Assembly (NCBI GenBank): GCA_963729625.1
Contig: CAVSOU010000010.1
Span: forward strand, 96,001 to 160,000
Length of the DNA stretch: 64,000 nt
Reading direction: 5' to 3'
Origin: an uncultured bacterium
GTDB lineage: Bacteria; Chloroflexota; UBA5177; JANWHV01
Shown here: in pieces, positions 52,852 to 63,877 of the stretch
Layout of the letters: each line of letters opens with the position of its first letter
How positions within the stretch are numbered: position 1 is the first letter of the stretch
Program-made: the position numbers and the translations under genes
Notes under the pieces: generated by a model
Told to the model about the DNA's origin: nothing
Databases searched by the model: none
What the model saw: only the letters and a program-made list of their open reading frames with translations

Positions 52852-53310
52852 ATGGTAAAGGTCGTATTGAACAAGGACGTGGCAAATCTGGGCAAGGCGG
52901 GAGAAGTCAAGGATGTCTCTCCTGGCTACATGCGCAACTTTCTCATTCCGCAGGGCCTCGCGGTGCTTGCCACGTCCGGCGCGCTGAAGTCGCTGGAAAC
53001 GCGGCGGTCGCAAATTATCAAGGCGCACGAAAAGGCGCGTTCCGATGCGCAATCGCTGGCCTCACGTCTCGCTGACGTCTCGCTCGTGTTCCAGGTACGA
53101 GTAGGCGAGCAGAACCGTCTCTACGGATCGATCACGAGCAAAGATATCGCGGATGAGTTGGCGCGCGCTGCCGAGATCACCGTTGATCGACGTGATATCG
53201 AGCTACCGGAGGCACTCAAGACCCTGGGCAACTACAGCGTACCGGTGCGATTGGGCCACGACGTTAAGGCTTCCATCAACGTTACGCTGCAGGAGGCGGC
53301 CTCCGCTTGA
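52852..53310 (+). CDS. rplI: 50S ribosomal protein bL9
   Basis: DVANLGKAGEVKDVSPGYMRNFLIP, RLYGSIT..DIA. Confidence 0.98.
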   Translation: MVKVVLNKDVANLGKAGEVKDVSPGYMRNFLIPQGLAVLATSGALKSLETRRSQIIKAHEKARSDAQSLASRLADVSLVFQVRVGEQNRLYGSITSKDIADELARAAEITVDRRDIELPEALKTLGNYSVPVRLGHDVKASINVTLQEAASA

Positions 53311-54656
53311 TCATGGAGACACTCGCGGCTGGAGGCGAAGAGCATCTACCGCGCAGTCTAGAAGCTGAACAGGCCGTCTTGGGCAGTCTGCTTCTTGATC
53401 CCGATGCCATCATCGAAGTTACCGCGATTTTGCGACCGGATGACTTCGCGCATGATGCCCATGCAGTTACCTACCGCGTCATGGTCGACCTGTACGAGCA
53501 GCGCCGACCGGTAGACGTTATTACCGTCCTGGAGGAGGTCGAACGCCGCGACCTCCTTCAGCGCGCCGGCGGTAGGGGTTACGTGCTTTCGCTGGTCGAC
53601 GTCGTACCCACTGCCGTCCACGTCGAGCACTACGCGCGGATCGTGGAGCGACTTGCGGTTCTTCGCCGGCTGATACGTGCCGGTGGCCAAATTGTCAGCA
53701 TCGCTCAACGCGACGGCGTCGAGGTCGAGGAGGCGCTGAACGATGCCGAAGAAGTACTGTTTGCCGTGGCCCAGGGCAGGAGCAGCGCCGGCTTTGTGCC
53801 GATTCGCGAGGTGCTTACAACGATCCTCGAGCAGGCCGACTACGTACACGAACACCGCGGAGCCATCCTCGGCACCCCCACCGGTTTCGTCGATCTTGAC
53901 AAGATTCTGGGCGGGTTGCAGCGTTCGGACTTGATCATCGTCGGCGCCCGGCCTGCGCATGGCAAGACCGCTCTGGCCCTTGGCATGTGCCATAATGCTG
54001 CTGTGCGGTTCAAACAGCGGGTTGCCCTTTTTAGCCTGGAAATGTCAAAGGAGCAGCTCGTGCAGCGCTTGTTGTGTATGCAGGGCAGACTCGACAGCGG
54101 GCGCCTGCGGTCCGGCTATATTGACGAGGCAGAGTGGGGCAGGTTGATCGAGGCTGCGGGCGTCCTGTCTGAAACACGCATCTTCATCGACGATTCAGCC
54201 GGGATTACTCCCGCTGAGATGCGCAATCGTGCGCGCAGGTTGCAGGCCGAGCAAGGACTGGACCTCATCGTGGTCGACTACCTGCAGCTGATGTCGGGCC
54301 GAGCGTCCGAGAATCGTGTGCAGGAGATCAGTGGGATCTCTCGCGCTCTCAAGATTCTTGCCCGCGAGCTGAACGTGCCGGTGGTCGCTCTCTCGCAGGT
54401 GTCCCGCGGTGTGGACTCGCGTACTTCGCACGTTCCGCTGCTCTCGGATCTGCGCGAGAGCGGCAGTATCGAGCAGGACGCCGACGTCGTACTATTCCTT
54501 TGCCGTGAAGAAATGTACGATCCCGAGACCGAAAAGCAACACATCGCCGATCTCTATGTGGCCAAACACCGTAACGGGCCGACCGGGCAGCTTTCGCTGT
54601 ACTTTGACAAAGTTCAGACTCGATTCCGGGACCTTGAGGCCCGCGCGCCGCTATGA
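53307..54656 (+). CDS. dnaB: Replicative DNA helicase
   Basis: EAEQAVLG, ARPAHGKT, FSLEM, VDYLQLM, SDLRESGSIEQDAD, KHRNGPTG; no intein. Confidence 0.98.
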   Translation: MIMETLAAGGEEHLPRSLEAEQAVLGSLLLDPDAIIEVTAILRPDDFAHDAHAVTYRVMVDLYEQRRPVDVITVLEEVERRDLLQRAGGRGYVLSLVDVVPTAVHVEHYARIVERLAVLRRLIRAGGQIVSIAQRDGVEVEEALNDAEEVLFAVAQGRSSAGFVPIREVLTTILEQADYVHEHRGAILGTPTGFVDLDKILGGLQRSDLIIVGARPAHGKTALALGMCHNAAVRFKQRVALFSLEMSKEQLVQRLLCMQGRLDSGRLRSGYIDEAEWGRLIEAAGVLSETRIFIDDSAGITPAEMRNRARRLQAEQGLDLIVVDYLQLMSGRASENRVQEISGISRALKILARELNVPVVALSQVSRGVDSRTSHVPLLSDLRESGSIEQDADVVLFLCREEMYDPETEKQHIADLYVAKHRNGPTGQLSLYFDKVQTRFRDLEARAPL

Positions 54657-55387
54657 GCGGCTTTGCCGGATTTTACCCAAGCAAAGCGGCGAACACGCCG
54701 GTACCGGATGCGTTCTTCAGCATACTGCTTCCCGAGATCGATTCCCTGGTCGAGCTGAAGGTGACTCTGCATCTGTTTTGGCTGCTCGCCCGTCGAACCG
54801 GCCTGCCAAAGGCCGTGGCGCTCGATGACTTGCAGGCCGATCGCTTACTCCTGAGGTCGCTCAAGCCCTCGCGTGGACCGCGAACTGCCGAGGATTGCCT
54901 TCGTGAGGGTCTCGAGCTTTCGGTGACGCGTGGCACAGTGTTGATGGTGTCGCTCGGCCAAACCGAGAAGGATCTGCGCCGGTGGTATCTCATCAACACA
55001 CCGGCCAGCCGCGATGCCCTCGAGGCGCTACGGCGCGAGGAGATCGACCCTTCCGCTGCCCTCGGCGAGCAGGTGGGGGCCGTCGAGATCGTTCGCATCT
55101 ATCGCCCAAATATCTTTACATTATATGAGCGGAACATCGGCGTGCTGACGCCGCTTATCGCGGACCGACTTCGCGACGCGGAGTTGACCTATCCGCACGA
55201 GTGGATAAGCGACGCCATGAGGCGCGCGGTCGAACAGAACAAGCGCAATTGGGCGTACGTTGCCGCAATTCTCAAGCGGTGGGAGGCTGAGGGGAAGGCC
55301 AGTGGAATCGATCGGCGACATTCTGAAACGCCTGGAGATTCGGAGAAATACACCGGAGGGCGATACGGCCACGTCGTCGAATCGTGA
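54653..55387 (+). CDS. DnaD-domain replication protein
   Basis: NIFTLYERNIG.LTP, AVEQNKRNWAYVAAILKRW (DnaD YxxxILxxW motif). Confidence 0.88.
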   Translation: MSGFAGFYPSKAANTPVPDAFFSILLPEIDSLVELKVTLHLFWLLARRTGLPKAVALDDLQADRLLLRSLKPSRGPRTAEDCLREGLELSVTRGTVLMVSLGQTEKDLRRWYLINTPASRDALEALRREEIDPSAALGEQVGAVEIVRIYRPNIFTLYERNIGVLTPLIADRLRDAELTYPHEWISDAMRRAVEQNKRNWAYVAAILKRWEAEGKASGIDRRHSETPGDSEKYTGGRYGHVVES

Positions 55388-56141
55388 GTCCGCGCCGGTC
55401 TGCGATCGATGTGGAGGCGCTGGCTACCTGCGCCTTGACGTGCCGGTGGACGATCCCGGCTTTGGTACGATCGTGCCGTGCGGCTGCAAGGAGCGCGAGA
55501 TTACCGAGCGTCGGATGCAGCGCCTGCTCGAGAAGTCGAACCTGCGCGCTCTCTCAAGCATGACCTTCGAGTCGTTCCTCGTGGACGCGCCGCAGCGCAA
55601 CGCCTTCAAGCGCGCGCAGCAATATGCAGCCAATCCCGATGGCTGGCTCGTGATCATGGGCGGCTATGGTACAGGCAAGACCCATCTTGCCGCGGCTATC
55701 GGCAACTATCGGCTGGCAATGGGCGCGCCCGCCCTGTTTATGGTCGTTCCGGACCTGCTTGACCACCTGCGCTCGGCGTACGCACCTGGTAGTGAGCTGG
55801 GATATGACGACTTCTTCGAAGGAGTTCGCGAAGCCCCTCTTCTTATCTTGGACGATCTCGGGACCCAGATCAGTACCCAGTGGGCGACGGAGAAGCTCTA
55901 CCAGCTCTTTAATCACCGCTATATCCACCGCCTGCCAACGGTGATCACGACGAACAGCTCGCTCGACGAGATTGGCGGCCGGCTTGCCTCGCGGATGTCG
56001 GACCCCGTGATAAGCACCTGCGTGACGATCGATTCGCGCGACTTCCGAGGCGGTGTTGGCGATTCGGACGAGCCTGGCTCGTCGGCTTCACGGCAAACCC
56101 GGCGCCGGCCACGCGGCATCGAATATACCGACCGCCCCTGA
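55302..56141 (+). CDS. DnaC/DnaI (IstB-like) helicase-loader ATPase
   Basis: CxxC..CxC zinc motif, GYGTGKTHLA, LILDDLG, TVITTN, RLASRM; GTG 55302 after GAGGGG. Confidence 0.9.
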   Translation: MESIGDILKRLEIRRNTPEGDTATSSNRESAPVCDRCGGAGYLRLDVPVDDPGFGTIVPCGCKEREITERRMQRLLEKSNLRALSSMTFESFLVDAPQRNAFKRAQQYAANPDGWLVIMGGYGTGKTHLAAAIGNYRLAMGAPALFMVVPDLLDHLRSAYAPGSELGYDDFFEGVREAPLLILDDLGTQISTQWATEKLYQLFNHRYIHRLPTVITTNSSLDEIGGRLASRMSDPVISTCVTIDSRDFRGGVGDSDEPGSSASRQTRRRPRGIEYTDRP

Positions 56142-56162
56142 CAGTACCGGCTGCGAACGGGT

Positions 56163-56192
56163 TTGACACAGTGGCTTCCCGACCAAGATACT
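56163..56192 (+). promoter_or_regulatory. Sigma70 promoter for uORF-secD-secF
   Basis: TTGACA-18 nt-GATACT. Confidence 0.6.
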
Positions 56193-56257
56193 AGTGAGGA
56201 CTGGATGAGCAGCCTGCGGCGGCAGCAATCCGCGCGGTTCGAGGTAACTGAAACCTG

Positions 56258-56701
56258 ATGGGTGTGCGTTCCGTACCGTCGATATTGCGCACACTTGCTA
56301 TCTTCGTCGCTTCGCTCCATGCGACTGGCGGTGGCCTTGGCAGTGTGGTCGAAGCCCATGACCTCAGGCACGCGCCGGCGCAGCCCGTCGTACGAACCGA
56401 TGTGGCAGAACCAAGCTCGAGAACCGGCGCAGACGAGATCGCCGGCCAGACGTTACTGTTTGCCACCGCCGAACTGTCCTCACCGTCTCTACCAGGCTCT
56501 GTCGTTCGCCCTTTCGATTCGTCGCCGGTGCTGGCGCCTGGGCGGCGACCGATGGCCAGAGACCCGCGCTCGGCTCATTCCGCACAACAGGAGCCGCTAG
56601 CGCGCCAGGTCCGTGCGACCCAGCCGACTGTCGTTGAGTGGCTGGACATTGTCCTGACTTCAAGTCCAGCGAACGACCCACAGCGTATTCGCGCTCCGTA
56701 G
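56258..56701 (+). CDS. Putative secretion-monitor/translation-arrest leader peptide
   Basis: Signal-peptide-like N-terminus, low-complexity middle, C-terminus QRIRAP-stop; directly upstream of secD. Confidence 0.7.
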   Translation: MGVRSVPSILRTLAIFVASLHATGGGLGSVVEAHDLRHAPAQPVVRTDVAEPSSRTGADEIAGQTLLFATAELSSPSLPGSVVRPFDSSPVLAPGRRPMARDPRSAHSAQQEPLARQVRATQPTVVEWLDIVLTSSPANDPQRIRAP

Positions 56702-56703
56702 TC

Positions 56704-56811
56704 CGTCTCCTCCCAGTACGCGATGGCGTCCGGCAGCGTGGCCAGGCTCAATTGCGCCCAAGCTGCTCGGCCGAGTCCATACTCTTCACGTAGCACACTG
56801 AGAGGTAGACG
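56704..56811 (+). promoter_or_regulatory. Stem-loop sequestering the secD Shine-Dalgarno sequence
   Basis: CGTCTCCTCCCAGT (56704-17) pairs with ACTGAGAGGTAGACG (56797-811). Confidence 0.75.
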
Positions 56812-56812
56812 C

Positions 56813-58213
56813 ATGCGTCAGCGAGCCCAACTATTCTTGATAGGGATTATCGTCCTGACATTCGCCGCCGTCCTGGTAGACCTTGCCGGCACGGTAGGCA
56901 ACTTTAAGGTTTTCGGTCACGGCACGGCGATCCATCAAGGTCTGGACCTCACAGGCGGCCTGAGCATGGAACTGAAGGCGACCGACCATAAGGCCGCCAC
57001 GAGCGATGCCATGGCAGCCGCGATTGACATCATCACCAAGCGCGTCAACGCCTTTGGCGTGTCCGAGCCGATCGTAACGCAGCTTGGAAGTGACGCGATC
57101 GATGTCGAGATGCCTGGCGTCAGGGATCCGGAGGTCGTGCGCCAGACGATCGGCAGCACTGGCCAGCTCGTTCTCTACGGGATGGGCAGCCTGACCCCAC
57201 TGCAGGACGGCGCCACGTTTCCTTACTCAAACACGACCACGCTCTGTGATGCCAAGAACGCGCCGACTCCGTGCGTGGTCATGAAAGGAAGCGAGCTCGA
57301 TTCGAGCCAGATCGCGAATCAGTTCGATCAGTACGGCCAGCCAATAGTAACATTTGGCGCGAAGGGCGGCGCCGTCGGCCGCCTTGGGACTTACACGACC
57401 GACCACGTCGGGGAATACATGGCGTTTGTCCTCGACGGGAAAGTGGTGACCGATCCCAAGATCCAGTCGGCTATCACCGGCGGGAACGGTGAGATCAACA
57501 ACATCGGCAGCAGTGACACCGCCAAGGCCATTGCCATTCGTCTCAAGTACGGCGCGCTGCCCATCGCCTTCACACCGGAAGCCAGCAGCCAGATCAGCGC
57601 CACGCTGGGATCGCAGTATGTCCATGACAGCATAACCGCCGCCATCGTCGGCATTATCGTGGTTATGTTCTTCATGGTCGCGAATTACAGGCTGCCGGGA
57701 CTCGTTGCCGACATTGCACTGTTGATCTACACGTCATTAGCATTCGCAGTGTTCAAGCTCTGGCCGTTCAGCGGCAGCGGCGCCAGCGGCATCACGCTCA
57801 CGCTGGCCGGAATCGCCGGGTTCATCCTCTCGATTGGTATGGCGGTTGACGCAAACGTGCTCATCTTCGAGCGGCTAAAAGAGGAACTGCGTACGAACAA
57901 GACACTCGGAGCTTCTATCGAAGCCGGGTTCAATCGCGCGTGGACGAGTATTCGGGACTCGAATGTGAGCACGATCATCACCTGCTGCGTGCTGTATTGG
58001 TTTGGCCAGAATTACGGCGCGACCGTGATCGCGGGTTTCGCCACTACGCTCGGCATCGGCGTAGGAGTATCGATGTTCACGGCGATCGTGATCACGCGCA
58101 CGTTCCTGCGCGCACTCGTGCGAAGCAACAGCAGCTATCACCCGAAGTGGTTTGGCGCCGGTCTGGAGAACGTCAGTCCACAGACGCGGCCGACCAAGGG
58201 AGGGCAGGGCTAA
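56813..58213 (+). CDS. secD: Protein translocase subunit SecD
   Basis: GLDLTGG, RVNAFGVSEP, GALP, IGMAVDANVLIFERLKEE, DSNVST. Confidence 0.97.
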   Translation: MRQRAQLFLIGIIVLTFAAVLVDLAGTVGNFKVFGHGTAIHQGLDLTGGLSMELKATDHKAATSDAMAAAIDIITKRVNAFGVSEPIVTQLGSDAIDVEMPGVRDPEVVRQTIGSTGQLVLYGMGSLTPLQDGATFPYSNTTTLCDAKNAPTPCVVMKGSELDSSQIANQFDQYGQPIVTFGAKGGAVGRLGTYTTDHVGEYMAFVLDGKVVTDPKIQSAITGGNGEINNIGSSDTAKAIAIRLKYGALPIAFTPEASSQISATLGSQYVHDSITAAIVGIIVVMFFMVANYRLPGLVADIALLIYTSLAFAVFKLWPFSGSGASGITLTLAGIAGFILSIGMAVDANVLIFERLKEELRTNKTLGASIEAGFNRAWTSIRDSNVSTIITCCVLYWFGQNYGATVIAGFATTLGIGVGVSMFTAIVITRTFLRALVRSNSSYHPKWFGAGLENVSPQTRPTKGGQG

Positions 58214-58259: not shown

Positions 58260-59306
58260 ATGATTAACATCATCAGGTATCGCTACTGGTATTTCCTGTT
58301 CTCGCTGTTGATCATCGTTCCTGGTTTCGCGTTCTTCCTAGCGGGAGGGCTGAAGCTCGGAATCGACTTTACGGGCGGCACAGAGCTCACGCTGCGGTTC
58401 AGCACGGTCCAGGCCAGCGCACACCTGGAGGATCAGATTCGTAGCGCGGTGATCAGCGGCGCCAAGCTAAGCGAAGCGGAGGTGATTTCGTCGACGCCTC
58501 TCGGCGGCGCAGCAAACAACGGCGCCCACTATCTCGTGCGCATTCCATTCATTGGCGACTCGCCGCAGAAGCTGGCGGCCGTCCTGGCGCCGCTCTATCG
58601 CGAATACGGTTGCGGCTCGCTCGTGAAGACCACGGCTCCCGGGCTTTACAAGGTGCCATTGCCCACCTGCAAGAACTTGGCGCTCGAGCAGGAAACCGAC
58701 GTCGGCGGCGCAATTGGCTCGCAGATTCGTTCGCGCGCCGCGACAGCGGTGGTCATCGCCGCCGCGTTCATCCTGCTGTATATATCCTTTGCCTTCCGCA
58801 AGGTGGCTCACCCGTTCCGCTACGGAACGTGCGCCATCATCGCATTGCTGCACGACGTTCTGGTGGTCATGGGGCTTTTCGCAATCTTTGGCAGGGCGCT
58901 CGGCGTGACCGTGGACTCGTTGTTTGTCACGGCCGTGCTCACCGTTATCGGTTTCTCGGTGCACGATACAATCGTTATCTTCGACCGAATTCGTGAGAAT
59001 ATGGCGCGCCGTATCGGCGAGCCCTTCGAGCTTGTCGTCAACAACGCCATCCTTCAGTCGATGGCACGCTCGTTGAACACGTCGCTGACCGTGCTGATGA
59101 CACTGACCGCGCTCTTGCTGTTCAGTGGGGCCAGTATCCGGATTTTCGTCGTGACGCTTCTTATAGGAATTACAAGTGGGACATATAGCTCGATCTTCAA
59201 TGCGAGCCCACTCTTAGTAGTGTGGGAGAACGACGAGCTAGGGATAGGCAAGTTTCTTCAGCGGTTCAGGAGGAGCAAGACCGGGCGGCCGGCTACCGCG
59301 CGTTAA
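58260..59306 (+). CDS. secF: Protein translocase subunit SecF
   Basis: GIDFTGGT, ALLHD, GFSVHDTIVIFDRIREN, GTYSSIFNASP. Confidence 0.97.
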   Translation: MINIIRYRYWYFLFSLLIIVPGFAFFLAGGLKLGIDFTGGTELTLRFSTVQASAHLEDQIRSAVISGAKLSEAEVISSTPLGGAANNGAHYLVRIPFIGDSPQKLAAVLAPLYREYGCGSLVKTTAPGLYKVPLPTCKNLALEQETDVGGAIGSQIRSRAATAVVIAAAFILLYISFAFRKVAHPFRYGTCAIIALLHDVLVVMGLFAIFGRALGVTVDSLFVTAVLTVIGFSVHDTIVIFDRIRENMARRIGEPFELVVNNAILQSMARSLNTSLTVLMTLTALLLFSGASIRIFVVTLLIGITSGTYSSIFNASPLLVVWENDELGIGKFLQRFRRSKTGRPATAR

Positions 59307-59405: not shown

Positions 59406-59651
59406 TCATTGACTGTTGCCGCCGTTCTCCGGCTGCTGAGGGCTCGGCGGTGAGCCGTTCGGCGCAGAGATGCTGATGCGCAACTCAGCCTTCGTCAACA
59501 GTGCGTCGCAGTGGCCTGCCAGGGCAATGCCCCGCTCGTACAGTGCAAGAGCTTGGTCGAGACTGAGGTCGTCTCCGCGCAGCTTCTCAACCGTGCTCTG
59601 GAGCTCTCCGAGCGCCTGTTCGAACGTGAGCTGGGCCGTATCGTCGTTCAT
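59406..59651 (-). CDS. xseB: Exodeoxyribonuclease VII small subunit
   Basis: FEQALGELQ..VEKL, LSLDQALALYERG..L...C..LL..AE. Confidence 0.95.
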   Translation of the reverse strand: MNDDTAQLTFEQALGELQSTVEKLRGDDLSLDQALALYERGIALAGHCDALLTKAELRISISAPNGSPPSPQQPENGGNSQ

Positions 59652-59666
59652 TGGCCGTTCAACCTC

Positions 59667-60935
59667 TCATCCTGCAGACCTGGTTTCACCTGAGCGCCAC
59701 ACGTCGTCAACGGTCGCCGCAACCGTGCCGTCCCGCAGACGGATGCGTATCTGGTCTCCGATGTCGAGCCCCGCGGCGTGGCGCACGATAGCGCCAGTCG
59801 AATCGGTGATCAGCGCATAGCCACGCTCGAGGGCGACGGTCGGATGAAGAAGGGCCAGCTCACCTTGCCGGCTCAGCAGGCGTTCCCGCTTGATCTGCAC
59901 GTGTCGAGTGGCCCGTTCGGTGAGGGCACGGACAAGGTCGTCGAGGTGCTGGTGCCACTGCACGATGCTTCGCCACGGACTGCGCTGCAGCAGCTCACGG
60001 TGCAGTGTATCCACCGAGCGGCGCGCTCTGGTCAACCGGTCGCCGAGCGCAGACAACATTTCCACGCCGTACGCCTCGACCTGCGAAAGTAGAATCTCTC
60101 GATCAGGGACGACTGCCACGGCCGCTGCCGTTGGCGTAGGCGCGCGCAGATCGGCTACGAAGTCCGCCACTGTGAAGTCGGTTTCGTGGCCAATCCCGGT
60201 AACCACGGGTACGGACGCACCGGCGATCGCGCGAGCTACCGCTTCGTCGTTAAATGCCCAAAGGTCCTCCACGGACCCCCCGCCCCTAGCGACGATGATC
60301 ACATCGATATCGCCGCGGTGCGACAGATGCTCGATCGCCGCAACTATCTGTTGGGGTGCTTCGACCCCCTGAACGAGCGACGGCGACAGGATTATCTCAA
60401 CTGCAGGGAAACGCTCGCCGATGACGCGGCAGATGTCCTGAAACGCAGCAGCTTGAACTGACGTGACCACGCCAATCCGGCGCGGAACTACAGGAATCGG
60501 CCGTTTCCGCGCGTCCTCAAACAACCCCTCTGCCCGGAGTTTCGCGCAGAGCTCCTCGAACCGCTGCTGAAGAATACCGAGCCCGGCGGATTGCAGGTGA
60601 TCGACGTAGAGTTGCACCGATCCCTGGACCTCGTAGATTCCGATTCGACCGTGGGTCAGAACTTGGTCACCGTTCTTGAGCGCTCTCAGAACAGCCTTTT
60701 GCACGCCGCTGTTGCGAAACGCGACCGCCCTGAGCTGGCATTCCTCGTCTTTCAGCGTGAAGTACGTGTGGCCTGCCGTTGAATGGCTGAGATTCGAGAC
60801 TTCGCCCTGCACCCAGAGACCGCTGAGAACCACGTCGTCGGCGAGCACGTCCCCCATGTAACGCACAACCTCGCCGACCGTGAAGACGCCGTCCACTTCG
60901 GCTCCTCGAACGAACCCGGCTGCGGATCCCTGCAT
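59667..60935 (-). CDS. xseA: Exodeoxyribonuclease VII large subunit
   Basis: GHTYFTLKD, ARGGGSVEDLWAFNDE, GHETDFT, RAPTPTAA. Confidence 0.97.
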   Translation of the reverse strand: MQGSAAGFVRGAEVDGVFTVGEVVRYMGDVLADDVVLSGLWVQGEVSNLSHSTAGHTYFTLKDEECQLRAVAFRNSGVQKAVLRALKNGDQVLTHGRIGIYEVQGSVQLYVDHLQSAGLGILQQRFEELCAKLRAEGLFEDARKRPIPVVPRRIGVVTSVQAAAFQDICRVIGERFPAVEIILSPSLVQGVEAPQQIVAAIEHLSHRGDIDVIIVARGGGSVEDLWAFNDEAVARAIAGASVPVVTGIGHETDFTVADFVADLRAPTPTAAAVAVVPDREILLSQVEAYGVEMLSALGDRLTRARRSVDTLHRELLQRSPWRSIVQWHQHLDDLVRALTERATRHVQIKRERLLSRQGELALLHPTVALERGYALITDSTGAIVRHAAGLDIGDQIRIRLRDGTVAATVDDVWRSGETRSAG

Positions 60936-61014
60936 CAGATGACCTCGCTCCGCACGTACGCGACCTTCGCGGCAACCAGAACACTGCGAATGGCTAACAG
61001 TGCGTCAGAGTAAC

Positions 61015-61458
61015 TCACCCTATCTCGACGAGCGGCTGGCCGAACTCCACGGCCGTACGATCTTGCACGAGGAATCGAAGCAGCATTCCTACCCGGTCGG
61101 ACCGGACTTCGTGTTGCAGCTGCATGGCCGCAATGACGCCGAGGAGGGTGCCTTCTTCGACCGGCTGCCCCTCCTCAACGTAGGACGGCGCTCCTGACTC
61201 CCCGGCGCGATGGAACACGCCTACCCACTGCGAGAGCAAGGCATAGGGGCCGCTCACCTCATCCGGCGTGGCTTCGGCTGCTCTCCGCCGCACCGCCCCG
61301 TCTGTCGCCAGGTCGAGCTTCAGTCGCACTGACCAGGATCCGTCTGCGACCTCGATCTCTTCCACGCCTGCCTGAAAGCACAGATCTGCCAATGCACGAA
61401 TGCCGGCCGCCGACGGAGTGGTCTCGTCGCTCTTCGCGGTATGCACACGATCCGCCAT
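61015..61458 (-). CDS. Biotin-carboxyl-carrier (AccB)-like protein lacking the biotinyl-lysine
   Basis: VGVFHRA, YVEEGQPV..G..LGVIAAMQL, VEFGQPLVEI; follows efp. Confidence 0.8.
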   Translation of the reverse strand: MADRVHTAKSDETTPSAAGIRALADLCFQAGVEEIEVADGSWSVRLKLDLATDGAVRRRAAEATPDEVSGPYALLSQWVGVFHRAGESGAPSYVEEGQPVEEGTLLGVIAAMQLQHEVRSDRVGMLLRFLVQDRTAVEFGQPLVEIG

Positions 61459-61467
61459 CGTAACCAC

Positions 61468-62034
61468 TTACGCCTTTGATACCCGCTCGATGTATTGCCC
61501 GGTCCGAGTGTCCACCCTGATCACCTCATCCTGGTTGATGAACAGCGGTACGAGCACGCTGGCGCCGGTCTCGACCGTTGCCGGCTTCGTAGTGCCGGAC
61601 GCGGTATCGCCGCGAACACCCGGCTCTGTATAGGTAATGCGAAGTTCCACGTTCGGCGGCAGCTCGATGGCAATCGGCTCCTCGCCGTAGCTCAACAGCT
61701 CGACTTCCATGTTCTCTTTCAGGAACTTCACATCGTCGCCGATCAGCGTTTGCGGTATCGCAATTTGATCGAACGTTTCGGTGTTCATGAAGTTGTACGA
61801 ATCTCCATCGGCGTACAGGAATTGGACGGCATGCGATTCCAGCCGAGCGCGCGGGAAGCGCTCCCCGGCCTGCACGGTCTTCTCTGTAATTGCCCCAGTA
61901 CGGAGATTGCGGAGCTTCATGCGCACCTGTGCGCTTCCGCGTCCCATCTTGATGTGATTGAAATCCAGCACACGGAACAAATCACCATCGATTTCGAACG
62001 AGATCCCACGCTTCAAGTCACCGGTCGAGATCAC
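61468..62034 (-). CDS. efp: Elongation factor P
   Basis: QFLY.DG...FM..ETFDQ, TEPGVRGDTA, KPATVETG, VPLFI, DTRTGQY. Confidence 0.97.
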   Translation of the reverse strand: MISTGDLKRGISFEIDGDLFRVLDFNHIKMGRGSAQVRMKLRNLRTGAITEKTVQAGERFPRARLESHAVQFLYADGDSYNFMNTETFDQIAIPQTLIGDDVKFLKENMEVELLSYGEEPIAIELPPNVELRITYTEPGVRGDTASGTTKPATVETGASVLVPLFINQDEVIRVDTRTGQYIERVSKA

Positions 62035-62058
62035 GCATTAACTCCTTGTTGATAAGTG

Positions 62059-63282
62059 CTATTGCACGGCAACGCCGGCTTGGCTTGTCTGACACTCGAG
62101 CGTCTCGCAGAAGTAGGTGTGCGAGTGTTTGCCATCCTTCGTCAATACCTCGAAGAATAACCACTTGGATTTCGTCGGGTAGAGTGCGGCATTCAGCGCA
62201 TTGAGACCAGGGTTGCTGATGGGACCAGGCGGGAGATTCGGGTGGAGATAGGTGTTGTAGAGGCTCAATACGCTGTTGTAATAATCCTGGCTTGGGATCT
62301 TGGGCCACCAGGTCTTCTCGGTCGCGCTGTAACCCATGCCATATTGGACCGTAGGATCGGCCTGCAGCAGTCGGCTGACGATCGAGTCGTTCTTGGGATC
62401 AAGCCTGTTCCAGTAGACTCCGGCGATCGCTTTCTGAACCTTGGGCAGGGAGCTTTCGCGCTGAATGATCGAAGCCATCGTCACGACCTGGAAAACGGTG
62501 TGATGCTCTCGATTTGCCTGCGCCACCATCGCGGCCGTGACCTCCTGCCCAAATCGCCTCAACATGAGAGCGATCACCGCGTGCGGATCCATGTGTGGGA
62601 GCAGTGTGTATTCCCCAGGAGCCAGAAATCCTTCGAGCGACGCTCCGGCCGGCAGCCCTTTGAGGAAGGCATAGTTGTACTTCGGTGTGGGGTCTTGAAT
62701 CTGCTTCATCACATCGGCGTACGGGGCGATGTGGTACTTGTCGAGAATCGTGGCGATCTCCTCTGCCCGCTTGCCGGCGAGAATGTTGTATTGGTTTTGC
62801 GGAGGCACGAATACGACATGGGTGGGAGGTGACTGGAGATTCTTGGCAATGTCATCCATTGACATATCGGTGTTAAGGGTGTGCGTGCCGGCCATCAAAC
62901 TACCTGATCCCCCGAAGAATCGGTAGTAGATGCCGAACAGCCAGCTACTCGACACAAGTCCGTCGCTCTGCAAATCATTGGCAATGGCGGATACGCCCTC
63001 TCCCTGCGTCACCAGGAAGCTCACCTGCTTGCGCGGGCCGCCTACCGAGGAATGGATCTGCTTGACCACATAGCCAATTCCGCCGAGAACGACAACTGCC
63101 ACCACGACCACTATCAGCAGGCCGAACAGGGTGCCGCCGCGCCCACCAGTGCGCCCCTGCCGGGTGTGAAATGCGGCAGGCAACTCTCCGTTCTGGCCGA
63201 TTCGTCCAGGCTCCAGACGTGTTGCCGATTCGCCTCTCGCCGCACGCAGCCTCTGCAGCCGATCTAGCTGGTCCTGTGACAT
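62059..63282 (-). CDS. mltG: Endolytic transglycosylase MltG (YceG)
   Basis: TM anchor, LEGFL.P..Y, MASIIQRE, NRL, LQADPTVQY, YNTY...LPPGPISNPG. Confidence 0.94.
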   Translation of the reverse strand: MSQDQLDRLQRLRAARGESATRLEPGRIGQNGELPAAFHTRQGRTGGRGGTLFGLLIVVVVAVVVLGGIGYVVKQIHSSVGGPRKQVSFLVTQGEGVSAIANDLQSDGLVSSSWLFGIYYRFFGGSGSLMAGTHTLNTDMSMDDIAKNLQSPPTHVVFVPPQNQYNILAGKRAEEIATILDKYHIAPYADVMKQIQDPTPKYNYAFLKGLPAGASLEGFLAPGEYTLLPHMDPHAVIALMLRRFGQEVTAAMVAQANREHHTVFQVVTMASIIQRESSLPKVQKAIAGVYWNRLDPKNDSIVSRLLQADPTVQYGMGYSATEKTWWPKIPSQDYYNSVLSLYNTYLHPNLPPGPISNPGLNALNAALYPTKSKWLFFEVLTKDGKHSHTYFCETLECQTSQAGVAVQ

Positions 63283-63426
63283 TCCTCAACATATCCCATC
63301 GCTTCTGTACTTGGAGTGCGCACGCGTCTTTTGGCTCTGCTCGAGCAGCCGGCCCAAACTACTCACGCTGACCACAGTATCGCAACCCGAGACTACGCTC
63401 ACCCTTCATCCACATCGTGGCAGCCC

Positions 63427-63861
63427 CTAACCGGCAGCGTCTTCCGCCAGCCCCTTCTGTCGCGATGCTGCATCGAGGAAATCCTGGAGCATGATCGCCG
63501 CGGCGATAGCATCAAGACGCTCGCGACGCCGGGGATCGCGGAATTTCACCTGCCGTATCACCTGTTCGGCTTCCCATGATGACAGGCGCTCATCCCAAAA
63601 TCGTACCGGTACAGGAAGAGGGCCAAGTTCTTCGATATAGGCGTAGGTCTCTTCAACCTGAGCTCCGCTGCTCCCGTCCATGTTCAGCGGAAGACCGACG
63701 ACTACCGCCCCAACACCGTGTTCTTCGATCAGCTCTCGGACGTAGACGCCATGAGCATCCGCCCGTTTCAGCGTTCGAAAGGGCGTAGCCAGGAACCCGG
63801 TTGGATCGCTGAGGGCGATCCCAATCCATCGGTTACCGACATCCAGGCTCAGATAGCGCAC
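63427..63861 (-). CDS. ruvX: YqgF/RuvX nuclease (pre-16S rRNA processing / Holliday-junction-resolvase-like)
   Basis: LDVGNRWIGIALSD, VVGLPLNMDG, WDERLSS, DAIAAAIMLQ; GTG 63861 preferred over ATG 63870. Confidence 0.94.
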   Translation of the reverse strand: MRYLSLDVGNRWIGIALSDPTGFLATPFRTLKRADAHGVYVRELIEEHGVGAVVVGLPLNMDGSSGAQVEETYAYIEELGPLPVPVRFWDERLSSWEAEQVIRQVKFRDPRRRERLDAIAAAIMLQDFLDAASRQKGLAEDAAG

Positions 63862-63868
63862 GAGCGAC

Positions 63869-63877
63869 ATGATACCA
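63869..63877 (-). promoter_or_regulatory. Extended -10 positioned for a leaderless ruvX transcript
   Basis: TGgTATCAT ends 7 nt before GTG 63861; no SD. Confidence 0.5.

Follow-up and report, generated by a model that had tools for sequence, protein, structure and literature searches.

We examined an upstream open reading frame (uORF) that directly precedes secD in a 64,000-nucleotide (nt) window of bacterial DNA, and which a preliminary description of this DNA had read as a secretion monitor for SecDF ending in RAP-stop. The window covers positions 96001 to 160000 of contig C10 in a genome of 5.4 Mb that is 87% complete (G000); G001 to G004 are the other genomes of the genus. The uORF sits inside a 671-nt gap between the end of a gene for a DnaC/IstB-like ATPase (56141) and the ATG of secD (56813). 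Every particular reported for it was correct, from its position and its length of 147 amino acids (aa) to the RIRAP-TAG end (CGT ATT CGC GCT CCG TAG), and Pfam confirmed that secD and then secF lie downstream. An end in RAP-stop occurs in 18 of the 23,623 six-frame open reading frames (ORFs) of at least 80 aa in G000. The features on which the analysis centers are the following (SD, Shine-Dalgarno).

56163-56192, plus strand: promoter-like site TTGACA - 18 nt - GATACT (10/12 matches), which would drive a uORF-secD-secF transcript.
56258-56701, plus strand: uORF, candidate monitoring substrate, of 147 codons plus TAG, with an ATG start and the end ...DPQRIRAP.
56258-56356, plus strand: signal-peptide-like N-terminus (aa 1 to 33), with a basic n-region, an uncharged core from TLAIFVASL and VEA before HD.
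56357-56683, plus strand: fast-evolving Ala/Pro/Ser-rich spacer without a predicted fold (38% identity between G000 and G001).
56684-56698, plus strand: R-I-R-A-P codons CGT ATT CGC GCT CCG, with R-A-P as the invariant core.
56696-56698, plus strand: Pro codon, proposed to occupy the P site at the stall by analogy with ApcA, ApdA, and ApdP (PMC7897499).
56699-56701, plus strand: TAG stop, proposed to occupy the A site at the stall; the aligned codons are AAC (Asn) in G004 and GAC (Asp) in G003.
56704-56717, plus strand: anti-SD strand CGUCUCCUCCCAGU, 3 to 16 nt past the stop, paired with 56797-56811 in the modeled folds.
56800-56805, plus strand: GAGAGG, SD of secD, 7 nt before the ATG at 56813 and sequestered in the model of the free mRNA.
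56813-58213, plus strand: secD, the proposed regulated gene (Pfam SecD_1st, SecDF_P1_head, and SecD_SecF_C).

We looked for relatives of the uORF. The family profile matched 5/5 genomes of the genus (including G000) and 0/16 other genomes of the class, a set that includes the unpublished G018. The contig of G002 ends before the C-terminus of its uORF, leaving four genomes of the genus in which the motif can be read. The syntenic uORF of G001 has 147 codons and ends in ...SPPRIRAP-TAG, and those of G003 and G004 have 142 codons and end in ...R(R/W)ARAP(D/N)AV(T/S)TGN-stop. The order DnaC-like gene, uORF, secD was retained at all five loci with downstream DNA (G000, G001, G003, G004, and the metagenome locus L053), and the distance from the end of the uORF to secD, on the same strand, was 112 nt in G000, 117 in G001, 100 in G004, and 98 in G003. 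A search of 61 related genomes with the single protein gave credible matches in the genus only (G001, E value of 3e-29; G002, 5e-6; G003, 0.09, the last being confirmed later via synteny). Matches in 37 other genomes (E values of 0.002 to 10) were discarded as noise, as they were short, mostly contained internal stops, and lay away from secD. Evaluation of the ORFs before secD in 30 loci (2 of them with too little upstream DNA) revealed none with the family features outside the genus; RFRARPE ends seen in one class-level family are part of a large upstream enzyme gene and not of a uORF.

Larger databases extended the family. The four-genome profile retrieved 18 sequences at E ≤ 0.01 from 5.8 billion proteins, in a search that scored only the 8000 candidates sharing most words, and an exhaustive hidden Markov model search of 1.84 billion representatives retrieved 16 at E ≤ 0.001, of which 9 were new. 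With the ORF of G001, this gave a set of 28 distinct sequences of 142 to 166 residues (alignment A4), with a mean column identity of 32%; the G003 and L053 copies, only a few residues from P0003, were left out. Where the relatives carry source names, these are Chloroflexota and "hypothetical protein," in agreement with the probable Chloroflexota origin that had been proposed for the genome. Scanning contigs for the family yielded one locus among genome contigs (the G003 contig) and two among metagenome contigs. G004 also has a second, weak match to the family profile (C135:10268-10477, minus strand, locus L058; E value of 3.9e-4; positions 20 to 91), located in an open frame of 211 aa. The relatives retained the signal-like start and the C-terminal RAP and varied in the middle, as the preliminary description had anticipated.

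The uORF is a real coding gene. Substitutions at the three codon positions numbered 57/41/94 between G000 and G001 and 22/13/34 between G003 and G004, and the ratio of nonsynonymous to synonymous differences per site (pN/pS) was about 0.5 in the coding frame. Columns with a stop were absent from the uORF frame and numbered 3 to 7 in each of the five other frames; the antisense frame with common wobble positions shows a similar substitution ratio, yet it is interrupted by stops. Amino acid identity between G000 and G001 is 88% for SecD, 46% for the uORF, and 38% for the middle of the uORF, which indicates that the uORF evolves much faster than its neighbor, yet stays open. For the middle region of this pair, the ratio of nonsynonymous to synonymous substitution rates was left unused because pS was saturated (0.75). 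It is very improbable that the uORF is instead a chance long frame in the G+C-rich leader of secD, its conserved ends being RNA or promoter elements. The genome is G+C rich and has many long spurious ORFs, several of which overlap the uORF, and the G+C content at third codon positions of the uORF (0.635) is below that of its neighbors (0.70 to 0.76); moreover, the uORF matched no Pfam family at E ≤ 0.01. The chance frame has to be set against a frame that is open in 28/28 relatives (142 to 166 aa) despite very low identity, the third-position excess with stops in all other frames, synonymous changes within the conserved motif, and the absence of any Rfam match (E ≤ 1) in 55500-57500, a region thus without a known riboswitch or leader. 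We regard it as close to refuted already. The missing Pfam match also excluded YajC (PF02699) as the identity of the uORF. Genome-wide, the best YajC match in G000 has 19.5 bits (C10:9468-9557), below the cutoff of 28.2, so that YajC counts as not found rather than as absent in a genome of this completeness.

We then analyzed the conserved parts of the proteins. In all members, 2 to 5 basic and 0 to 1 acidic residues precede the hydrophobic core (TALVFLASL or TLAIFVASL), and ...G-S-V-E-A follows it. The core corresponds to a 12-residue uncharged stretch flanked by Arg in most members and is longer in the G000 subclade; 12 residues are too few to cross a membrane and are usual for the h-region of signal peptides. 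The invariant N-terminal columns in the 28 sequences are R11, F16, A18, S19, and G26. An AlphaFold2 model based on 19 sequences consists of a single helix (residues 8 to 23) with no secondary structure beyond it; its mean predicted local distance difference test score (pLDDT) of 55.8 denotes a weak model, which we used solely as absence of evidence for a fold, and the block means over the spacer were 44 to 64 (10-residue blocks, residues 31 to 140). The disordered Pro/Ala-rich spacer of the preliminary description is thus recovered as an Ala/Pro/Ser-rich, fast-evolving region without a predicted fold. Its Sec-signal-like start agrees with rules of thumb and is conserved in relatives, and we keep it at that rule-of-thumb grade.

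At the other end, R-A-P was found in 27 of the 28 members, within the last 4 to 12 residues. The sole member lacking it, P0015, diverges over its last ~20 residues (…ERVLRALLCRWTDPAR), which may reflect a frameshift at the 3' end. The position after RAP is a stop in six members (P0001, G001, P0004, P0005, P0006, and P0020), and it is Cys in 14, Asn in 3, Asp in 3, and Ser in 1, the members with a sense codon continuing for 4 to 8 further codons past RAP. On these sequences, what unites the family is RAP and, next to it, a small polar residue or a stop. A stop codon in the A site, with arrest at termination, had been proposed from the window; the stop is real in the sequence, but it is confined to one subclade (6/27), and most members have a sense codon. 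Since they do, the common mechanism would be elongation arrest at RAP, and termination arrest would be derived or alternative.

The DNA alignment placed the TAG of G000 and G001 at the position of AAC/GAC, and homology extends past the TAG. The RAP codons themselves vary between genomes (CGC GCT CCG, CGC GCT CCC, and CGC GCG CCC). A contig from an RNA library that is 91% identical over 56626-56827 has six differences in the last eight codons and retains the TAG; five of these differences are synonymous (56668, 56680, 56683, 56686, and 56695), and one changes Asp to Glu. Such synonymous changes indicate that what is selected in the motif is the peptide rather than the RNA sequence. Two RNA libraries from two studies (peat metagenome) gave contigs that run unbroken through the 3' end of the uORF, the leader, and the start of secD (56626-56832), which is compatible with cotranscription of uORF and secD; these sequencing-run data are Logan contigs with small shares, and about 56400-56620 of the uORF is without cover. 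Many members with a sense codon after RAP (P0002, P0003, P0007 to P0011, P0013, P0016, and P0019; in G004, L024:2980-3003, minus strand) share a loose x-V-x-x-G-N-stop tail. This tail of 6 to 7 residues would be made only after release of the stall, and its conservation has no obvious reason. In G000, the DNA homologous to the tail, now untranslated, is the anti-SD strand.

These C-termini resemble published arrest modules. In the stalled complexes of ApcA, ApdA, and ApdP, the RAP proline occupies the P site (Sakiyama et al. 2021, PMC7897499). For ApcA, arrest is compatible with Cys, Asn, Thr, Ser, Asp, or Ala in the A site and is enhanced by Cys (PMC7897499). Cys, Asn, Asp, and Ser, the residues found after RAP in our family, all fall inside this permissive set, and the commonest is Cys; as the A-site residues are mutational neighbors, the match is suggestive and not a statistic. 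A screen of >30,000 genomes for uORFs before secA, secDF, or yidC that carry a localization signal and whose C-terminus is conserved led to the definition of the RQH family, whose RAPP-like peptides occur in nine phyla (Fujiwara et al. 2024, PMC10987492). RAP*, RAPC, RAPD, and RAPS were motifs of uORFs clustering with ApcA and served there as search queries, and one RQH member regulates secDF2 via an SD-sequestering stem (PMC10987492). RQH members were selected by the presence of a motif from the query list in >2 uORFs from species of one order (PMC10987492), and our family falls under this rule via RAP*, RAPC, RAPD, and RAPS; RAPN is outside the query list, and Asn is permissive for ApcA (PMC7897499). 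Like known monitoring substrates, the uORF immediately precedes secDF on the same strand and combines a conserved C-terminus with a poorly conserved remainder.

A coding gene with a signal-peptide-like start might also be an ordinary small exported protein of the genus, cleaved and released or surface associated, with RAP as a processing, sorting, or binding motif and with a nonregulatory adjacency to secD. We consider this unlikely. The 4 to 8 codons past RAP and the loose tail, needless for a pure stall site, would fit it, as would the "hypothetical protein" labels that NCBI gives to the relatives and the fact that the RNA switch described below was not seen in G003 or G004. Nevertheless, the body evolves very fast (38% versus 88% for SecD) and has no predicted fold, so that little remains to carry a function of its own, and conservation is limited to the parts required of a monitoring substrate. 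The residues past RAP fit the published arrest-permissive set, synteny with secD holds at 5/5 loci, and the leader of G000 contains a position-specific switch in the model, all of which speak for a monitoring substrate instead.

We then modeled the secD leader of G000. Both the minimum free energy and the centroid folds of 56660-56830 paired 56704-56717 with 56797-56811, and the last uORF codons paired with the start region of secD. The energy required to open a 10-nt SD window was calculated at 52 codon positions, the 28 nt under the ribosome (-12 to +15 of the first P-site base) being forced single-stranded as its footprint. Opening cost 12.24 kcal/mol in the free mRNA and 11.0 to 12.2 kcal/mol until three codons before the end of the uORF, and then dropped to 3.89 kcal/mol, the minimum over the 52 positions occurring exactly with the RAP Pro codon in the P site. 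When the upstream 300 nt were shuffled 90 times with dinucleotides preserved, the native sequestration (12.24) was reached by 1/90 shuffles and the native drop of 8.35 by 0/90 (maximum, 3.19). The modeled stalled footprint (56684-56711) covers eight of the nine bases of the 5' block of the anti-SD strand (56704-56712). In this model, the mRNA of G000 behaves like a SecM-type switch. The loci are too few for covariation, and we make no claim of compensatory base changes for that reason.

Based on the sequence features, the modeled RNA, and the analogy to known systems, we propose that the uORF is probably a Sec-monitoring arrest peptide of the RAPP-like (RQH) type that controls secDF, in a new homology group and a new phylum. 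A uORF-secD-secF transcript would start from the promoter at 56163-56192. The nascent chain would begin with a signal peptide of the Sec type, continue as a spacer of ~110 unstructured residues, and carry R-x-R-A-P at the C-terminus. Arrival of RAP at the peptidyl-transferase center, with Pro-tRNA occupying the P site, would block the following reaction, namely, release at TAG in the G000 subclade and transfer to Cys, Asn, Asp, or Ser in most relatives. In G000, a ribosome stalled over 56684-56711 would free the SD of secD from the anti-SD strand and allow initiation at secD. When export is efficient, the Sec machinery would pull on the nascent chain and end the stall fast, the helix would re-form, and translation of secDF would drop. 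The monitor for SecDF of the preliminary description is partly supported, by sequence features, synteny, and the RNA model of G000; what changed is that an A-site stop codon is not family-wide and that the kind of element has already been described.

Several points weigh against this proposal. The signal peptide was called by rules of thumb and not by SignalP, 1/28 members (P0015) is without the motif, and a genome with 63% G+C encodes R, A, and P frequently. The A-site residues are mutational neighbors (AAC, GAC, and TAG in the DNA that was available), and their match to the permissive set thus does not count as four independent events. The RNA-library contigs derive from relatives, with 4 and 18 differences, and may contain DNA, so they are not proof of transcription. 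ApdA and ApdP require Pro in the A site (PMC7897499), and RAPP arrest was explained by a hydrogen bond from the proline nitrogen in the A site (Morici et al. 2024, PMC10951233). As this model rests on an A-site proline, a block at a stop codon or at Cys needs more than it provides; the terms "release factor" and "termination" are absent from the part of the text of PMC10951233 that was searched. Finally, in G001 the SD opening energy drops by only about 1.5 kcal/mol at the RAP codon (9.48 to 7.96) and reaches 6.9 at a position a few codons before it, sequestration of the SD is weak in G003 and G004 (3.9 to 4.6 kcal/mol) and the footprint is without effect there, and the z-scores of the leader folds are modest (-1.4, -2.0, -4.3, and -1.0). 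The RNA switch is therefore well supported in the modeled leader of G000 and is not conserved as a family trait.

This uneven unmasking, strong only in G000, weak in G001, and missing in G003 and G004, while the peptide features are conserved in all, would also suit an arrest peptide with another output. The stalled ribosome might keep Rho from loading onto the C-rich leader, as in TnaC, or protect the mRNA and thereby raise transcription or stability of secDF, the helix of G000 being a lineage-specific addition. The C-rich stretch past the stop and the lack of any intrinsic terminator-like site in 55900-57000 agree with such an output. We nonetheless give it a low probability, somewhat below that of an ordinary exported protein, as the unmasking in G000 is strong and exactly positioned (0/90 shuffles) and the published uDF_RQH, SecM, and VemP act by SD unmasking (PMC10987492 and PMC7897499).

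Next, we compared the family with individual arrest peptides. The RQH groups found upstream of secDF share with it a short same-strand uORF, an N-terminal localization signal (putative in the family), and a C-terminal R-A-P-x. They have no overall similarity between groups, and the Chloroflexota family is a separate homology group, in which the dominant fourth position is Cys and not Pro. ApdA and ApdP have a signal peptide and likewise lie upstream of secDF (PMC7897499), but membership was rejected, as no family member has Pro after RAP. ApcA (Actinobacteria, RAPG) has transmembrane segments and precedes yidC, unlike the family. The separation from these three rests on their descriptions, and the profile search of 1.84 billion representatives returned only this family. 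SecM of E. coli, with its signal peptide, its length of about 150 to 170 residues, its I-R-A core (GIRAGP versus RIRAP), and its SD unmasking (PMC7897499), resembles the uORF, in which the signal peptide is putative and the unmasking modeled. It differs in lying before secA, in stalling with Gly in the P site and Pro in the A site, and in its motif FxxxxWIxxxxGIRAGP, the upstream F/W/I of which is missing from the uORF (PMC7897499). With secD downstream and RIRAP-stop as the motif, the uORF was not assigned to SecM.

Stop-codon arrest also has precedents. The uDF_NAP-stop and uA_NSP-stop peptides of Bacteroidota stall with a stop codon in the A site (PMC10987492), as is proposed for the RIRAP-TAG subclade. 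They are exported uORFs before secDF or secA that, like this subclade, end in x-A/S-Pro-stop. NAP-stop has Asn at -3, which is important for arrest, whereas the Chloroflexota family has Arg there (RAP in 27/28). Stop and sense forms coexist within the one Chloroflexota family, unlike in NAP-stop, which belongs to Bacteroidota and another homology group. Membership in uDF_NAP-stop was rejected given the Arg at -3, the proline end in only 6/27 members, and the phylum. LudP and uDF_DGMK-stop (Clostridia/Bacillota; bioRxiv 10.64898/2026.10.26.761930) are related peptides upstream of secDF that stall at a sense codon and at a stop codon in the A site, respectively. This pair parallels the two forms within the Chloroflexota family; its motif is unrelated (DGEKE/DGMK*), and its stall site lacks a proline. 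"Chloroflex" is absent from both the main text and the candidate table of PMC10987492; among 12 supplementary files, it appears in the genome list only, at least 512 times. In a literature search whose scope excluded the supplements of other papers, a single paper on arrest peptides named Chloroflexota or Chloroflexi, in the legend of a figure concerned with motif bias across proteomes (PMC12992588), and only Fujiwara et al. (PMC10987492) was found for RAP-stop, NAP-stop, and the RQH family.

The remaining features of the locus are listed below.

53307-56141, plus strand: dnaB helicase gene, a DnaD-like gene (DnaB_2 domain), and the gene of the DnaC/IstB-like loader ATPase (Pfam), upstream of the uORF.
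56241-56244, plus strand: GAGG, a possible SD of the uORF, at the long spacing of 13 nt from the ATG; its function is presumed.
58260-59306, plus strand: secF (Pfam SecD_SecF_C, 6.3e-50, and Sec_GG), with its probable start at the ATG of MINIIRYRY.

The TTGACA/GATACT promoter that had been reported before the ORF was found at 56163-56192 and is the sole promoter-like site in 55900-57000, where shuffles predict 0.2. In the DNA alignment, both hexamers are retained in G001, and G004 has TTGACA/CATACT; the contig of G003 stops short of the site. The GAGG at 56241-56244 is invariant in sequence and position in the four genomes of alignment A2. The start of secD is supported by G001, as the ATG of MRQ... 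is the first start codon past the preceding in-frame stop, and G000 has a single secD match genome-wide. In the ORF list, the secF frame begins earlier, at 58152. G000 has one secA, elsewhere on the contig, and one yidC, and neither is preceded in this genome by a uORF resembling that of secD. As listed, the DnaD-like and the DnaC-like ORF have 128 nt in common (55260-55387), probably an artifact of choosing the first possible start. A second family of the class also has a DnaC-like ORF directly before secD in three genomes (L025, L031, and L047; judged by eye), and in most other genomes of the class that place is taken by another gene of larger size. Downstream of secF, the minus-strand ORFs at 59406-63870 resemble xseB, xseA, a gene for a small biotin-carrier-like protein, efp, mltG, and ruvX. 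The presence of an elongation factor P (EF-P) gene near a candidate for proline-dependent stalling is probably a coincidence.

Peptides of this kind are already known (RAPP-like before secDF, RAP*, and NAP-stop; PMC10987492), and what is new here is the homology group and the phylum. The family would extend Sec-monitoring arrest peptides to Chloroflexota, which are absent from the 2024 candidate table (PMC10987492), and would support a repeated origin of RAP-type stalling modules. Its natural A-site variants behind an invariant RAP fit the published mutational series and could probe how far the RAPP mechanism reaches, including at termination. It is conceivable, if rather less likely than the monitoring function itself, that within this one family the same R-A-P module works with a stop or with a nonproline sense codon (Cys more often than Asn, Asp, or Ser) in the A site. 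Should every form stall, a P-site RAP would disable both peptidyl transfer and release-factor-catalyzed hydrolysis, beyond the proline-specific "short-circuit" of RAPP. The family would then serve as a natural set of alleles for dissecting how the peptidyl-transferase center is silenced by a tripeptide in the P site, and a single codon would switch between elongation arrest and termination arrest, with former tail codons reused as an anti-SD strand. For the annotation of these genomes, a "hypothetical protein" and the gap before secD would become a regulatory unit.

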